Positions 51,906 through 57,735 of a DNA stretch of 64,000 bases are shown here, piece after piece. The first letter of the stretch is position 1; each line of letters starts with the position of its first letter. The translations under genes and the position numbers were made by a program. The notes below the pieces were generated by a model. The model did not search any database. It was not told where the DNA came from and was given only the letters and a program-made list of their open reading frames with translations. The stretch comes from Spirochaetia bacterium (GTDB lineage: Bacteria; Spirochaetota; Spirochaetia; UBA9216): contig OY776510.1 of assembly GCA_963675665.1 (NCBI GenBank), positions 1,184,001 through 1,248,000 on the forward strand, in the 5' to 3' direction.

Positions 51906-52331
51906 TTATCTGCAGAACACCTTGATGGCGGCATCTTCGGTGTCGATGTCGACAGAAAGCTCTTCAAGGGCCGTCATCAGTTCCTGAATGTTTTCGGGTT
52001 TCATGTCGTTAAGGTTGAAATTAATACCTTTTTCATTCATTGATGAGTTTATCTTGTCCTGCGCATCCTGCGGGATAAGACCGGCAACATTCAAGCCTGC
52101 TTTAAGAAGACCGAACGGGACCTTTACCGAAACCTTGTCGGAGCTTTTCCCTTCTTTGGGTTCAACCTGGACGTAGAGATTTTTATTCTCCATTGAATCC
52201 AGAAAGGATTTGCCTGTTTCGGTTTTTGGCGGGTTCTGTTTGTCAACTGCGTTAAGCAGTTTTTCAGCTTCTTCCGGGGAAATTTTTCCCTCTGAAAGCA
52301 TTGTCAATATTCTCTTTTTTTCGTCAGCCAT
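51906..52331 (-). CDS. SHOCT-like (YvlB/LiaX N-terminal) domain protein
   Basis: EKKRILTMLSEGKISPEEAEKLLNA motif; typical neighbour of DUF2089. Confidence 0.8.
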   Translation of the reverse strand: MADEKKRILTMLSEGKISPEEAEKLLNAVDKQNPPKTETGKSFLDSMENKNLYVQVEPKEGKSSDKVSVKVPFGLLKAGLNVAGLIPQDAQDKINSSMNEKGINFNLNDMKPENIQELMTALEELSVDIDTEDAAIKVFCR

Positions 52332-52345
52332 TATTTATACTCCAA

Positions 52346-52618
52346 TCATTTTATAAAAAACATAACATCGGCATCATTCGAATGAACTTCTACCTCGGTT
52401 CCTTTCGCTGCGTACAGCAGCGAAGGCGCATGAAACAGAAGCCTCATATATGTACGAACCTCTTTCGTCTGCTGTGGTGATGCAAGCATGATCGCATAAA
52501 CAATCGTTGCCATAACAAATACCGGAAGCAGAAGCAGGTAAAGCAGGATTAACGGGAAATAAAATCCGAATGATGCATCTTTGCTCTTTACCCTGATTCT
52601 AAGAATCATTGGTAACAT
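52346..52618 (-). CDS. Small hypothetical membrane protein of the DUF2089 operon
   Basis: RBS TAGGAGG; one long hydrophobic segment; C-terminal GTEVEV motif. Confidence 0.75.
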   Translation of the reverse strand: MLPMILRIRVKSKDASFGFYFPLILLYLLLLPVFVMATIVYAIMLASPQQTKEVRTYMRLLFHAPSLLYAAKGTEVEVHSNDADVMFFIK

Positions 52619-52639
52619 CTTTTCCTCCTATGGAAACAT

Positions 52640-52722
52640 CCTGCCATGAACTGCGAAGTAACACCCAAGGTTCGGCAGGTTACAGAGGTGAAGTTTGATG
52701 AGCACTGCTTATCAAACTTCAA
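52640..52722 (-). repeat. Structured intergenic element, copy 1 (candidate cis-regulatory RNA or REP-like repeat)
   Basis: Long hairpin TGAAGTTTGAT...ATCAAACTTCA plus a CCTGCC/GGCAGG-closed junction just upstream of the RBS; homologous to 53924-54003. Confidence 0.7.
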
Positions 52723-52749
52723 CATAAATCAGGACAGAATTGTTCCGAT

Positions 52750-53115
52750 TTATTCCATTTCCTTCAGGGCGTCGGATACGTCTATCTCGCCCTGTTCAAG
52801 TTTATCCAGGATACTTGATACCGATTGCCTTATGTCAACTTCGACATCAACTATATCTATCTGTTTTGCAATGGAATTTAACCTGTTTTTTACAGTAGGG
52901 TAGCTGATTCCGAATATCGTTTCCATTTGTTTTATGGATCCGTGGGTTTTTAAAAAAGCGGCTGCAAACAGCTGATCTTCCATGCTGAGCTCAGCAAGCG
53001 GCGGGAGTTGAAAGTTTCCTTCGATGTCGATGTGATCTTCAGGAATGTGCACTTTACTTATAAGGAACTTCTTTCCGCCTGCCATGGTGATCAGTTTTTT
53101 CCAGCTATGGTACAT
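52750..53115 (-). CDS. DUF2089 family HTH protein (probable regulator)
   Basis: IEGNFQLPPL, FLKTHGSIK.ME..FGISYPTVKNRL and a C-terminal SHOCT-like segment; ATG 53115 after GGAGGA. Confidence 0.85.
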   Translation of the reverse strand: MYHSWKKLITMAGGKKFLISKVHIPEDHIDIEGNFQLPPLAELSMEDQLFAAAFLKTHGSIKQMETIFGISYPTVKNRLNSIAKQIDIVDVEVDIRQSVSSILDKLEQGEIDVSDALKEME

Positions 53116-53135
53116 AAATATCCTCCGATATTGAC

Positions 53136-53164
53136 AATGTACCACCGGCAGCCGGATAAATCAA
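53136..53164 (-). promoter_or_regulatory. Sigma70-type promoter of the DUF2089 operon
   Basis: TTGATT-17 bp-TACATT with an extended TG. Confidence 0.55.
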
Positions 53165-53193
53165 GAGCAAAATTAAAAAAATAAATAAAAATA

Positions 53194-53226
53194 CGCAATA
53201 TTATTAATTAAATTAATAATATTGCG
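53194..53226. terminator. Perfect 16-bp AT-rich inverted repeat (peroxiredoxin terminator and/or operator)
   Basis: CGCAATATTATTAATT-A-AATTAATAATATTGCG followed by a T-rich run on the minus strand. Confidence 0.6.
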
Positions 53227-53255
53227 CTAAATAATGATTAAAACTTAGTTTTGGC

Positions 53256-53903
53256 TTATAGCTCCCTGTGACAGAACCACCAGTCATAGCCGTCATATTT
53301 ACTCAGGCGTTCAGAAGCATCTTTCTGATTGTTCGGCGGCGGAATAATTACCCTGTCGCCGATAAGCCCGTTTTCCGGCCAGTTTGCCGGGCAGGCAACC
53401 TTGTTCTTGTCGGATACCTGTAATGCTTTAACCGCACGGACCACCTCGTCCATATTTCTTCCTATTTCCTGCGGGTAGTACAGGACAAGCCTTACCTTTC
53501 CTTCCGGGTCGCCGATGAATACCGCACGAACGGTGTTTGTGCCTTTTCCGGGATGCAGCATTCCGAGCTTGTTTGCAATGGTGTCGTTTGCCGCAACTAC
53601 GGGAAATGTTATCTCAACGTCCAGTTTTTCTTTAATCCATTCGATCCATTTAATATGGCTGAAAACCTGATCTACCGACATTCCGATCAGCTTTACGCCC
53701 ATCTCGTCAAATTCCTTCATCTTTTCCTGAAAACCGACAAACTCGGTTGTGCATACAGGGGTGAAGTCGGCCGGATGGCTGAAGACTACAAACCAGCTTC
53801 CTTTAAGATCGCCCGGCAGGCTCATTGGTCCGTGTGTGGTTGATACGTCCATCCGGGGGAAGTCGTCTCCCAGAAGGGGCATATTAATTTTGTTTTCTTC
53901 CAT
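53256..53903 (-). CDS. Peroxiredoxin (Prx6/TDXH type)
   Basis: [28 protein letters not shown] motifs and C-terminal WWFC. Confidence 0.95.
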
Positions 53904-53923
53904 GTCTTACTCCTATAACTTTT

Positions 53924-54003
53924 CACCATGGACTACGAAGTAGCACCAAAGGTATGGTGTTTTGTGTGATGAAGTTTAATGAGCAATACTTATCAAACTT
54001 CAA
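53924..54003 (-). repeat. Structured intergenic element, copy 2 (peroxiredoxin 5' UTR)
   Basis: Blocks 24/28 and 31/34 identical to copy 1; closing stem CACCAT/ATGGTG. Confidence 0.7.
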
Positions 54004-54032
54004 AACTTTATTTGTTTTACACCTTCATATAA

Positions 54033-54049
54033 AGCATTATCCGTGCCAA
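54033..54049 (-). promoter_or_regulatory. Sigma54 (-24/-12) promoter of the peroxiredoxin
   Basis: Minus strand TTGGCACGGATAATGCT, GG-N10-GC; next to a divergent sigma54 activator. Confidence 0.8.
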
Positions 54050-54133
54050 ATTATATTATTGAAACCTAAGTTGTTTGTGGGTAAAGATCTATCATGTGTT
54101 TATCCGTTTCGTTAAAATTTTAATATTGTTCTG

Positions 54134-54190
54134 CACCGAAATATCGGTTATAATACAGCTAAATATCGGTGTTACACCGAAATGTCGGTG
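54134..54190. promoter_or_regulatory. Three enhancer-like palindromes CACCGA-N4-TCGGTG
   Basis: CACCGAAATATCGGTT (54134), CAGCTAAATATCGGTG (54156), CACCGAAATGTCGGTG (54175); 85-140 bp upstream of the sigma54 site. Confidence 0.7.
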
Positions 54191-54199
54191 GGAGAAAAA

Positions 54200-55672
54200 G
54201 TGACAAACTATTTTATGAATCCCCTTAAAGCGGAAGAATTTCTGGACCTGATACTGAAAGCTCTCAGTGATCTGGTGGATTATGAGCTTGCAGTAATACT
54301 GAAGATGCAAAGTTCGACCGTTCTTGCTGTGCAGAAGGCCAGGGGGCGACTTTTACCGGAAAAGCTGTCGGATTATAGTATTTCGCTTAATGAGCGCAGT
54401 GATATTGCATTGCTTATGAAGGGAAACGAACCTTACCTCTTCCGTGAGGATGAAGAACATGAAGACACATACGCTGAAATTCTCGATCTGCCTGAGGGCC
54501 ATTCCTGCCTTGTTTCTCCACTGAAATTTCATGATCAGCTGATCGGTATGCTTACGCTGGATCATACTGCCTGTAATATGTTTTCGCCTGAAATTGTTAA
54601 ATTTGTCGGCACAATCTCAAAGCTTATTTCAATAATACTTGTTCAGAGTGATTCGTCCGCAATGATGATTGAACAGCAGAAGGTTTTAACTGAAGAAAGG
54701 AATTTGCTGCTTTCGACAGATTCGGTAAAATTTGCAAGAGTCATCGGTCAGTCCCGCGAATGGAAGAATGTATTGGAATCAGTACGAATGGTAGCCGGTT
54801 CGGATGTTTCTGTTTTACTTCAGGGTGATACGGGAACAGGCAAGGAAGAAATAGCCCGGCTCATCCACAGCCTCAGTCCGAGGGACAGCGAGCCTTTTGT
54901 GGCGGTGAACTGTTCAACCCTTACTCCTTCTCTTGCCGAAAGTGCATTATTCGGGCATGAAAAGGGGGCGTTCACAGATGCCTACACCCGCAGAAAGGGA
55001 CAGTTCGAACTTGCCGACGGGGGAACGTTGTTTCTTGACGAGATAGGCGATATGCCGCTTGAGATACAGCCGAAGCTTCTGCGGGCGATACAGGAAGGAA
55101 GTTTTGAGCGTGTAGGCGGAGAACAGGAAATCAAGTGCGATGTGCGGATTATAGCGGCAAGCCATATTGATCTGCATGAAGCGATAAAAAGTAAAACATT
55201 CAGAGAAGACCTGTTTTATCGTATCGGGGTGTTTCCGATCAGGCTGCCTGCGCTCAGGGAACGTGAGAATGATGTGATTCTGCTTGCCGAGCATTTTTTA
55301 AAAACAATGGACGGAGGAAAATACGGTAACCTGCTGCAATTTGCACCTTCGGCTGTTGAGTACCTGCTTGAGCATCGCTGGCCGGGAAATGTTCGTGAGC
55401 TTCAGAATTCTGTAAAACGTGCCGCCCTGCTGGCCGGAAACGGGTTAATTGAACGAAAAGATCTCAGCCAGGATTATAATATACTGCGGGTCGGGATTAT
55501 AGATGACTCCGAACCTGAATCGTTTTCTTCTCTGGATGAAGCGATAAAGAAACATATTGAAAAGGCCCTGGTTTTTTCAGGCGGAAAGATATACGGGGAG
55601 AGCGGAGCTGCCGGGCTTCTCGGAATGAAACCCTCGACCCTGCAGAGCCGTATGAAAAAACTTGGAATATGA
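54200..55672 (+). CDS. Sigma54-dependent transcriptional activator, NorR/FhlA-like (GAF-AAA+-HTH)
   Basis: GDTGTGKE, GAFTDA, FLDEIG, FREDLFYR, WPGNVREL motifs and an HTH; NorR-like GAF. Start set at GTG 54200 after GGAG (ATG 54215 is an alternative). Confidence 0.9.
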   Translation: MTNYFMNPLKAEEFLDLILKALSDLVDYELAVILKMQSSTVLAVQKARGRLLPEKLSDYSISLNERSDIALLMKGNEPYLFREDEEHEDTYAEILDLPEGHSCLVSPLKFHDQLIGMLTLDHTACNMFSPEIVKFVGTISKLISIILVQSDSSAMMIEQQKVLTEERNLLLSTDSVKFARVIGQSREWKNVLESVRMVAGSDVSVLLQGDTGTGKEEIARLIHSLSPRDSEPFVAVNCSTLTPSLAESALFGHEKGAFTDAYTRRKGQFELADGGTLFLDEIGDMPLEIQPKLLRAIQEGSFERVGGEQEIKCDVRIIAASHIDLHEAIKSKTFREDLFYRIGVFPIRLPALRERENDVILLAEHFLKTMDGGKYGNLLQFAPSAVEYLLEHRWPGNVRELQNSVKRAALLAGNGLIERKDLSQDYNILRVGIIDDSEPESFSSLDEAIKKHIEKALVFSGGKIYGESGAAGLLGMKPSTLQSRMKKLGI

Positions 55673-55749: not shown

Positions 55750-55911
55750 ATGCAGAAAGAAATTACCATAAAGGAATTCACGGCAGAGCTAGTTGATAGA
55801 ATCGACAGGGAAAAGGGTATAGACTGCTGTAAAGAAGAAATCAAACGTTTTGCCGAAATGGCTTCGGTAAAGATGCCCGATGAGAAGATCCTGGTAACCT
55901 GGAAAGATTAA
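55750..55911 (+). CDS. Small (53 aa) hypothetical protein with a CC motif
   Basis: AGGAGAG RBS, ATG 55750; MQKEITIKEF...GIDCCKEEIK. Confidence 0.7.
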   Translation: MQKEITIKEFTAELVDRIDREKGIDCCKEEIKRFAEMASVKMPDEKILVTWKD

Positions 55912-55941
55912 GCTGAAGGTGATTTAAACTCCGGCTTTCCG

Positions 55942-57735
55942 TCAGAGTTTAAATCTTTTAATTTCCTCTTTCATTTCCCCGGCATTTATGCTCAACAGTT
56001 CCACTGTTTGAACAAGCTGTAACATGGAATTACGGATGTCGTCGCTCAGAGTTCCCGTCCGGTTCTCAAGCTCTTCCATTATGCTGATTGCCTCAAGGCT
56101 TGAATCAACAACCCGGTTGAGGTTCTGCTGCTGGTTCGCGATGTCATCTGAGCTGTCTTTTACGCTTTCAGTGACTTCCTGAACTTCATTTATTGCTTTC
56201 ATTATTTCTTTGCTGCCGATAGTCAGTTCTTCGGTACTGGAGGCTATTCCGTAGAGTCCGTCAGCGACGTTGTTTACCGCACTTGCAATCCTGGTAAAGG
56301 CCTCTTTTGAAGATTGGCCGGAAGCTTCAGTTTTCATAATTGTTGCAGTTATCATTTTTATTGAATCGCTTATCTGTTTTGATTCGGCTGATGATGTTTC
56401 TGCAAGATTTCTGATTTCTTCAGCTACAACGGCAAACCCCTTTCCTGCTTCGCCCGCATGAGCAGCTTCAATCGCGGCGTTCATTGACAGCAGATTGGTC
56501 TGTGAGGCAATATCCTCAATCATCTGGGCGAATTCCTGGATCTGATCAACAAGGTTTCTGATTGAGGTTATCTGTTCGGTTGTTTCTCCGATTGTGGCGT
56601 CTCCGCTTTTGGAAAGTTCCACAAGTTCGGTTGTCAGTTTTTGCCTGTCCTGAACAACCCTGTTAACGCTTTCAAGCGACGCAAGCATTTCTGTTATTCC
56701 CGCTGAGGATTCTTCTACTATGGCGGAAAGCTGCGCTATGCTGTTTTTAAAATCATCCAGCCTTGTATCGATTACGCCTGTGTATTCTTTTGTGCTTTCG
56801 ATTTCGCGGCTGGTAACTACAAGCTGTTCCTTGCTGGCTGAGACCGATTTGGAAATTGTATCAGTCGCTTTCATTGTGCGGTCTGATACTTCTGAAAGCG
56901 CATTGCTGTTTTTCTCGGTGCCTATTGAAACCTCCCGGGTTTTACTGATTATTTCGGAGAGGTTTTCCATAAAGAGGTTGAAATTGCCGGCAATGGTCCC
57001 AAGCTCGTCATTACGCTTTATCTTTATCCGGTGAGTTAGATCACCACTGCCCTTTGATATTATTTCAACCGCTTTATCTAGCCTTTTTACCGGCCTGATG
57101 ATGAATTTGAAATTCCAGAACATCAGGATAGCCAGGATGGCTATGTTCAACAGTCCCATAAGAATTATAAGCTGTATTTTTGTTCTGTTATTTTCCGCTA
57201 TCTGTCCGGAGATGTCCTGAATGAAAATATAAAAACCAACAATCTCATTGCGAAAATCATGTATCGGGATATAGCTTGTCATATAATTATCTTTTCTTGC
57301 ATAAATTTTTCCGCCGCTGCTTTTGGCTTCTTTAATTATTTCTTTTGAAACAAGATTCTGAGGGTCAATCCAGTCTGAAGAAACATAGGAGATCATCTGA
57401 GATCCGATCTCGCCCATGTTGTAATATTCATTCAAATCGTCTTCAAAAATAATCTTCAGAAGCTGTTCTCTGTCGGCAAGAAGTACCATTCCTGTTTTTG
57501 TATTGTCAAGTTTCATCATCTCGAGAAGCGCCTGGGGCTGAAAATACATTTCAACCGAGCCGGCTGTGCCTTTTTGCGTTTTTATGGGATGAACCCCCCT
57601 TATAACCATTCCCCCTTTTCCGAGCTCAATGCCCCGGATAGGTTTTCCGGTTGAAATTACTTCGTTGACCGTATGTCTGAATGAGCTCAGATCATCTCCG
57701 GCCTTGTCGGTCCAGGTTCTGTAAAGGCTTCGCAA
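55942..57735 (-). CDS. Methyl-accepting chemotaxis protein, apparently 5'-truncated (partial Cache domain, TM, HAMP, signalling domain)
   Basis: [34 protein letters not shown] and a HAMP domain. It begins mid-Cache domain, with an in-frame stop two codons upstream and no first TM. Confidence 0.8.

Follow-up and report, generated by a model that had tools for sequence, protein, structure and literature searches.

Dispersed structured repeats are known from several bacterial groups. The REP (repetitive extragenic palindromic) sequences and bacterial interspersed mosaic elements (BIMEs) of enterobacteria and pseudomonads are dispersed extragenic palindromes that occur as mosaics and tandem arrays, keep their hairpins and lie mostly between co-directional genes. 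In spirochaetes, the TD motifs have remained orphan candidate RNAs since 2007, when the sections of the original description that deal with them gave 28–29 copies of TD-1, usually 5′ of genes, and 36 copies of TD-2, 17 of them not 5′, recorded both from Treponema denticola only, noted that seven TD-1 copies overlap reverse complements of TD-2 and proposed no function (Weinberg et al. 2007, PMC1950547). Here we analyzed a 64,000-nucleotide stretch of DNA (the window; positions 1184001–1248000 of the single-contig 5.15-Mb genome of a Spirochaetia bacterium, G000), which carries two similar structured elements on its minus strand, copy A (52640–52722) and copy B (53924–54003). A sequence-only reading had proposed the pair as a new cis-regulatory RNA. 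We conclude that copies A and B are probably diverged members of a dispersed, modular repeat that is coupled to Shine–Dalgarno (SD) sequences, resembles REP sequences and MITEs (miniature inverted-repeat transposable elements), and corresponds to the TD-2 family read on the opposite strand. This reading is carried by the family membership of the copies, by the architecture, covariation and orientation of the units, by their presence and absence among species, and by termini that they have in common with an SD-targeting IS110-family element.

Both copies proved to be real, with a mean column identity of 82% over a 131-column alignment, and the 3′ edge of each, said to lie about 10 nt before the ribosome-binding site, was measured at 8–10 nt ahead of ATAGGAG(G), which is followed by a start codon. 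Copy A (83 nt) has a minimum free energy (MFE) of −30.0 kcal/mol (z = −3.82) and copy B (80 nt) of −22.6 kcal/mol (z = −4.05), and for both copies 0 of 200 shuffles were as good. The long hairpin drawn for them, UGAAGUUUGAU-A-AGY...GCU-C-AUYAAACUUCA, is in the MFE folds of both copies, and the stem differences predicted to become G-U pairs in the mRNA sense are indeed there as two such pairs in copy B. Novelty and privacy fared less well. No Rfam family, TD-2 included, matched copies A or B at E ≤ 10 on 2 kb or at the gathering cut-off on the whole window, but sibling units exceed the cut-off of TD-2 (RF03162), and what had been taken for a private duplication is a pair of members of a family of about 100 copies. 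The units appear to be a variant of a known, unexplained motif family in an SD-coupled, repeat-like form; the literature searched held no description of this form of the TD motifs, nor of a link between TD motifs and IS110 elements.

Architecture and orientation of the repeat family

The family was initially reached through a BLAST search of copy A against its own genome, which returned further copies of its first hairpin. A covariance model, R1, was then built from an alignment of 40 other units of G000 with the window copies left out. Its genome search scored 150 of 3123 candidates, such that unit totals are lower bounds: at least 125 matches at E ≤ 1 and at least 100 units at E ≤ 2.2 × 10−4, the latter being the set analyzed. 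Within the window, R1 matched copy A at 58.4 bits (E = 1.4 × 10−12) and copy B at 39.1 bits (E = 1.2 × 10−7), while the third-best match was the reverse strand of copy B (E = 0.024).

Read on the strand of the downstream gene, the 5′ flank of a unit is often SD-like (AGGAGGAAT; AGGAGGAAU in RNA) and is followed by three hairpins in fixed order. P1 has a 10–13-bp AU-rich stem and the loop YUCCRU, with a U-run after it; P2, GAAGUUUG..CAAACUUC (DNA GAAGTTTG..CAAACTTC), has a tip of 5–31 nt and leads over a short linker to P3, a 5–6-bp GC stem with the loop RUCCAU. A U-rich spacer, AAUUUUUUAU (DNA AATTTTTTAT), then AGGAGG and the start codon complete the 3′ end, the start codon lying 39–59 nt, mostly 45–50 nt, past P2. 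In the 40-unit alignment the loop letters of P1 and P3 were near-invariant, with YUCCAU common to both, and 91.7% of cells were paired compared to 76.0% in shuffles and 39–49% in slid controls. Changes on both sides occurred in 25 of the 31 pairs, and 0 of 500 shuffles reached any of five measures.

Units also form tandem arrays of up to five. The five-unit array at 1652325–1652905 of the genome, upstream of a BtpA-family gene, has a period of ~112 nt and units 90–99% alike, and further arrays lie at 2973049–2973380, 836226–836467 and 4576520–4576766. In other units, P3 or the tip of P2 has taken up other hairpins, comparable to the modular, variable-length stems of the 2007 description. P2-type hairpins, GAAGTTTN-loop-NAAACTTC, additionally recur on their own, several times, between the genes of an rRNA/tRNA operon (88043–90244), among other places just 5′ of the 16S 5′ end; the P2 module may there serve a distinct purpose, for instance in processing stems. 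A different repeat with at least 10 identical copies (45489, 344885, 4416264 and at least seven more), which starts ..CATAGCTGTCCAAAACAATCATAACAGCTCCA.. and gives weak P2 matches, probably belongs to the terminus of another insertion sequence.

Orientation relative to genes was strict. Downstream of the 100 units we found an SD and start codon (open reading frame, ORF, of ≥50 codons) in 82 cases, the next unit of an array in nine and an insertion sequence in six; the remaining three were missed by the pattern, with a start codon visible by eye, and all 100 face a start codon. Since R1 itself contains the SD and ATG, the test was repeated with 33 TD-2 matches: a stretch of 70 nt on the opposite strand contained an SD and start codon for 22 of them, compared to 0 of 33 when the TD-2 strand was read; among the remaining 11, seven are inner array units. 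The REP- or MITE-like family that the sequence-only reading had offered as its alternative is thus closer to the evidence in being dispersed, but does not have the random orientation expected of it. For 72 of 90 array heads, a co-directional ORF ended no more than 150 nt away, which indicates that many units, copy A included, are intercistronic.

There was no common theme among the downstream genes. A Pfam scan of 40 downstream proteins matched 35, among them families of ABC and branched-chain transport, SpoU, YbaB, BtpA, ferredoxin, HisB/HisC-type proteins, malic enzymes, AOR, MetH, MetK, PurC/PurE, Lgt, CheX, ETF, LolA-like and LemA. The covariance model and the genome and class searches, suggested earlier as checks, therefore returned strong covariation and a family of about 100, but one common to many unrelated genes, and for the window copies a riboswitch-type test, which asked whether the genes form a coherent set and whether a core is conserved with them across species, failed. 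What stands of the proposed cis-regulatory RNA is that the copies are structured, sense-strand leaders with compensatory change; the gene-specific, riboswitch-like part does not.

The link to TD-2 came from typical units rather than from the window copies. RF03162 matched five of seven typical loci, two over the cut-off, and across G000 reached E ≤ 1 at 42 places, exceeding the cut-off (48.7 bits) at 18 of these and always lying antisense to the downstream gene. Copies A and B fail the TD-2 model because of a 27-nt hairpin insertion in P3; of the three-hairpin TD-2 layout, copy A has all parts but with AUUC as its P1 loop and a split P3 loop, and copy B is without P1. Among genomes of the class, 10 of 151 were positive for TD-2, including three of three in the window's genus and one of two in a sister genus; in family f33, one genome had a single weak match (E = 8.8 × 10−5), while four complete 2.7–2.8-Mb genomes of a distant genus had 21–25 scored hits each. 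R1 found units in five of five genomes of the genus, nine of 10 of the family and one of 30 from other families.

Units of the distant genus, represented by G043, share the three hairpins and their loops with those of the window's genus. An SD with a start codon came after two of 20, compared to four of 20 on the other strand, with the ORF limit relaxed to 25 codons because flanks were short. These units thus show no link to the starts of genes, and it is the window's lineage that is marked by coupling to the ribosome-binding site. The TD-1 model (RF03155) reached at best 28.6 bits in G000 against a cut-off of 64.5, with no match in the window. One G043 locus (L129, 1639881–1640381 of contig C1) has TD-1 at 132.6 bits on the plus strand overlapping TD-2 at 65.8 bits on the minus strand; it ends in UUUUUAUUGGAG and then AUG, and no other among the 20 G043 loci examined has the SD-linked layout of the window's genus.

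Turnover between species and an IS110-family element with unit-like ends

Units are gained and lost at the scale of species, as orthologous sites without a unit show, while retained units keep their folds. For 20 units of the related genome G004, the downstream proteins were searched in G000, and eight were dropped (five without a hit, three at 27–43% identity). At the 12 remaining orthologous loci (75–92% protein identity), a unit was present in both genomes at eight, one of them without P2 in G000, and at the other four G000 has a plain SD where G004 has a unit. The closest orthologue of the peroxiredoxin gene downstream of copy B, in G003 (90% identical), has the sigma-54-type motif and an SD 25 nt later without a unit, indicating that copy B is specific to the G000 lineage. 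At the copy A site, by comparison, G003, G004 and G005 all have units that fold P1, P2 and P3 with a plain P3 hexaloop, and their P2 arms are almost wholly replaced yet paired. The same site holds a degenerate unit in G001, and in G002 the two flanking genes overlap without a unit. The empty sites looked for in MITEs were hence found at four of 12 loci, at the copy B locus (G003) and at the G002 locus, although the length of the flanking repeats is not fixed; the within-locus excess of such repeats was modest (mean longest shared word 6.2 vs. 5.4, reached in 0 of 200 permutations).

Six units run into one identical sequence, a ~1.4-kb element present in 15 copies whose 370-aa proteins are 100% identical. 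It is an insertion sequence (IS) of the IS110 family with a DEDD transposase (PF01548 and PF02371, E = 9 × 10−18 and 1 × 10−17), as in the copy at 242903–244347 of contig C1 (L096, about 204–1648). All 15 copies lie inside an SD, point the same way as the gene that follows and rebuild the SD with their right end: on the left the junction reads host ..TTTAT-AGGAGG-AATGATAAAAAGTCTTC.. and on the right ..TTGACTTTTTAT-AGGAG-spacer-ATG, the ATG being that of the host gene. IS900 is said to target the interval between ribosome-binding site and start codon (an observation credited to Doran et al. in 1997). The left end of the IS, AGGAGGAAUGAUAAAAAGUCUUC, is the 5′ end of the consensus unit, that is, the SD-like copy and the P1 5′ arm, and the right end, GACUUUUUAUAGGAG, is the P1 3′ arm plus the 3′ end of the unit, the likeness extending over ~23 nt on the left and ~12 nt on the right. 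Allowing up to two mismatches, the left end occurred in 39, the right end in 54 and both ends in 33 of the 100 units; termini in common with an autonomous element in the same genome, as looked for in MITEs, were thereby found. At seven of its 15 sites, the IS comes immediately after a unit. A 14-nt string from the left arm occurred 18 times, in the 15 IS copies, exactly in P1 of two units and once elsewhere, and the G000 search found no solo P1 element without the IS. The single IS110 element of G004 has unrelated ends.

Upstream of the transposase gene, the left non-coding region (~200 nt) contains two similar hairpins, each followed by TAGGAGA, and no Rfam family matched the IS. A long non-coding region in this position is typical of IS110-type elements, its RNA picks the target, and mini-elements whose ends are intact are mobile if the transposase and the non-coding region are given in trans, according to the sections of PMC11187229 on these points. 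The hairpin–TAGGAGA pairs fit guide segments of the bridge- or seek-RNA kind, with candidate guide loops around the two UAGGAGA copies at about 310–380 of L096. We hold it as a tentative possibility that the TD units of this genus are non-autonomous cargo of a guide-RNA-directed IS110-type recombinase that targets the SD, with the folds of many of them since selected by the host. Each insertion would then split an SD and rebuild it at the 3′ end of the unit, while the 5′ end would retain an SD-like scar, with UUUUUAUAGGAG-N5-AUG as the candidate target of the recombinase, and the outcome would be a three-hairpin leader with a standard ribosome-binding site before ~2% of genes. If the recombinase link is true, 5′ leaders across the genome would have been rewritten by guide-RNA-directed insertion in a natural setting.

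Under the broader repeat reading that we favor, units would spread by insertion or recombination at SDs, possibly through an IS110-type guide-RNA-directed recombinase, duplicate in tandem, and be gained and lost between species, which is the behavior of REP-, BIME- or MITE-like cassettes rather than of sensors for a particular gene. Copy A would be an old unit that at least four species have retained and whose P3 loop took up the 27-nt hairpin in G000, and copy B a P2–P3 fragment placed in a sigma-54-dependent peroxiredoxin leader in the G000 lineage only. The units would be transcribed within leaders or intercistronic RNA, where their hairpins may act generically, through RNA-end protection or insulation and by presenting a ready-made SD, and their conserved loops may be read by one common factor; loops kept in two distant genera point to such a common reader. 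A second lineage of TD motifs in this way yields concrete hypotheses on their nature. It also calls for caution in annotation, as structured, covarying leaders in these spirochaetes would be repeat cassettes and not riboswitches.

Points against the repeat reading and alternative explanations

Several observations weigh against this reading. No IS110-family gene was found in G003, G005, G043 and G070, all rich in units, in searches with the IS protein and PF01548, so the IS is not the general mobilizer, and it may simply have adopted unit-like ends; copy B is without any left end. Direct repeats flanking units are 7–16 nt long and locus-dependent, which is unlike simple IS110-type insertion. 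Most dispersed units are 70–80% alike and only three dispersed pairs reach ≥90%, indicating that recent mobility is rare. Long retention of units with compensatory change argues for a host-level function, which the cassette reading leaves vague, and the predicted probability that the SD is unpaired did not differ between units and controls (0.41 in 64 units vs. 0.38 in 150 control genes, p = 0.35). Finally, G·T or T·G cells in the alignment numbered 16 and A·C or C·A cells 29 of 1176, such that there was no sense-strand bias and either strand, or DNA rather than RNA, may fold.

The host-level function could be that of a global cis-regulatory leader, in which units selected by the host present their YUCCAU loops and GGA-containing SD copies to one trans factor, either an RNA-binding protein such as CsrA at two AGGAGG sites or another reader of the loops, and place ~100 genes under common post-transcriptional control. 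Near-invariant P1 and P3 loops that recur in the distant genus, hairpins that compensatory changes have preserved in four species at orthologous sites, the fixed distance to the start codon and a CsrA gene in the genome would all fit. We nevertheless consider it rather unlikely, as no theme unites the downstream genes, close species differ in which sites carry a unit, the peroxiredoxin gene among them, the G043 element is not tied to gene starts (two of 20 vs. four of 20), and no sense-strand G-U bias exists. The CsrA gene itself is uninformative, being present in five of five genomes checked, including the unit-less G014.

Function could also reside on the TD-2 strand, with antisense small RNAs exposing two AYGGAY loops, for example as sponges of Csr/Rsm-type proteins. 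Rfam TD-2 matches the antisense strand only, sense A·C cells (G-U on the antisense strand) outnumber G·T cells by 29 to 16, and a TD-2 locus of G043 has a weak match to the TwoAYGGAY RNA (RF01731), sub-threshold at 38.7 bits against a cut-off of 43 and the only one found. TwoAYGGAY shows large variation in copy number and mobile-element-like expansion, and Csr/Rsm binding of its AYGGAY loops has been proposed, as summarized in the preprint (bioRxiv 10.64898/2026.09.22.753630). All units are co-oriented with an abutting SD and start, however, and antisense promoters would fall inside coding starts; moreover, the G-U pairs of copy B are on the sense strand, which together make this explanation improbable.

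The original proposal, a riboswitch-like three-way-junction RNA controlling the peroxiredoxin and membrane-protein genes, depends on the 3′ domain of copies A and B. This domain is P3 with 27 nt inserted between letters 2 and 3 of the hexaloop (AU | ACC-NNN-GGY GCUGC-UUC-GCAGU | CCAU), an insertion present at five places in G000. The covariation claimed for the closing stem was borne out, two of its pairs having both partners replaced (U-A to C-G and G-C to A-U), and across the five copies one pair of the 5-bp arm changed likewise; this, and the location of both copies directly 5′ of an SD, is what speaks for a dedicated RNA. The junction itself was not established: the 3-bp ACC/GGU arm shows no variation and has A·C in two of five copies, and RNAfold and RNAalifold preferred a bent hairpin. 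The insertion is missing in the orthologous units of G003, G004 and G005, as is the whole of copy B in G003, the five carriers precede unrelated genes, a LolA-like gene among them, and other hairpins are inserted in P2 tips and P3 loops elsewhere in the genome. By these comparisons the 3′ junction is a G000-specific insertion, and a riboswitch-like RNA is highly improbable. A double-stranded DNA operator for a dimeric transcription factor can hardly be credited either, for although P2 is a near-perfect inverted repeat and G-U pairs are scarce (16 of 1176 cells), stem interiors and variable tips covary freely, conserved letters are in loops and not arms, and three different palindromes in fixed order beside an SD are not operator-like.

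Two further candidates located in P1 were rejected. A leader peptide from the AUG in the P1 loop does not keep its frame (the unit at 1679794 differs) and has an SD spacing of ~18 nt, and a sigma-70 promoter inside P1 would have an unconvincing spacing of 19–20 nt; a promoter scan found none in the window region.

The window copies and comparison with known systems

Copy A has its closest relative in copy B and vice versa, as no other unit combines their P2 subtype, present at eight places in the genome, with the P3 insertion, and copy B is most likely a P2–P3 fragment copied locally from copy A, 1.3 kb away. The extent first given for the elements covered real sequence but was too short for copy A, which has P1 as a further 5′ hairpin (Table 1). 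The 5′ arm of this P1 overlaps the TAA stop (52752–52750) of a DUF2089 gene, and the family UCCAU is missing from its loop. The stretch of copy B that R1 aligned to P1 is the native sigma-54 leader, alignable with that of G003.

Table 1 Features of copies A and B in the window (positions of the window; minus strand throughout)
Feature	Position	Strand	Basis or remark
Copy A, whole unit (P1-P2-P3-spacer-SD-ATG)	52616..52770	-	R1 match
Copy A, hairpin P1, AUAAAUCGGAACA / UGUCCUGAUUUAU, loop AUUC	52724..52753	-	sequence, MFE fold
Copy A, hairpin P2, UGAAGUUUGAU-A-AGC...GCU-C-AUCAAACUUCA	52689..52721	-	fold, R1
Copy A, hairpin P3, CCUGCC...GGCAGG, with 27-nt insertion ACC-UUG-GGU + GUUAC-UUC-GCAGU in the hexaloop	52640..52679	-	
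Copy A, SD AGGAGG (52629-52624) and ATG (52618-52616) of 90-aa ORF	52616..52629	-	sequence
Copy B, span of R1 match	53901..54051	-	real parts only P2, P3, spacer, SD, ATG
Copy B, hairpin P2, two sense-strand G-U pairs	53970..54002	-	sequence, fold
Copy B, hairpin P3, CACC...GGUG, same 27-nt insertion as copy A	53924..53959	-	fold, alignment
Copy B, SD UAGGAG (53915-53910) and ATG (53903-53901) of 1-Cys peroxiredoxin gene	53901..53915	-	
Sigma-54-type motif TGGCAC-N5-ATGCT, 5′ of copy B	54033..54048	-	sequence; kept in G003

Copy A sits between the DUF2089 gene and a 90-aa ORF (52618–52346) for a membrane protein without a Pfam family, within an apparent minus-strand operon (51906–53145) that comprises a DUF2089 HTH protein, copy A, the membrane ORF and a SHOCT-like DUF2089-C protein. 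Copy B lies, as had been stated, between the motif TGGCAC-N5-ATGCT, which we take to represent the sigma-54 promoter consensus, and the start of a gene for a 1-Cys peroxiredoxin (53903–53256, Pfam). A divergent sigma-54 activator gene (GAF; 54182–55672) adjoins this promoter. Between the peroxiredoxin promoter and the activator gene, the palindrome ACCGA(T/C)ATTTCGGT occurs three times at 54134–54190 (minus reading); the repeats are also present in G003 and are likely candidate binding sites of the activator. Right after the peroxiredoxin stop, a perfect 16-bp, near-pure A/T palindrome with a T-run (53193–53227) is terminator-like, and its Rfam miRNA and snoRNA matches were at chance level only. 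Weak R1 matches at 996–1159 on the minus strand (14.6 bits, E = 0.21) and 55905–56038 on the plus strand (14.4 bits, E = 0.23) could be decayed units or chance.

Compared with known systems, the TwoAYGGAY RNA is similar in having two hairpins with AYGGAY loops, but has another basal stem and occurs in other taxa, and the AYGGAY strand of the units is antisense to genes. Like REP sequences and BIMEs, the units are dispersed, arrayed and hairpin-keeping, and array heads mostly follow co-directional genes (72 of 90); unlike them, they have a strict orientation and distance to the start codon and carry an SD. The RAYT/Y1 transposase (PF01797) was not found in G000, G004, G043 and G070, and occurs once in G003 with internal stops. 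With MITEs of IS110-type elements, the units compare in that the IS enters SDs in one orientation and has ends in common with them, whereas most units are old and diverged and their flanking repeats are longer than expected for the IS110 family.

TD-1, as described in 2007, is comparable in its 5′ regulatory configuration before many unrelated genes and in its overlap with reverse complements of TD-2, but its model finds nothing in G000. The closest likeness is to TD-2, which has the same three hairpins in the same order, with AYGGAY on the TD-2 strand being RUCCRU on the sense strand, and which is likewise multi-copy in spirochaetes with stems of variable length. The units of G000 differ in that they match TD-2 in antisense and continue into a U-rich spacer and then an SD whose distance from the start codon is fixed. 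They lie 5′ of genes, a configuration that is neither part of the TD-2 account in the 2007 description nor seen in G043, and whereas that account reports TD-2 from Treponema denticola only, the units here fill another genus.

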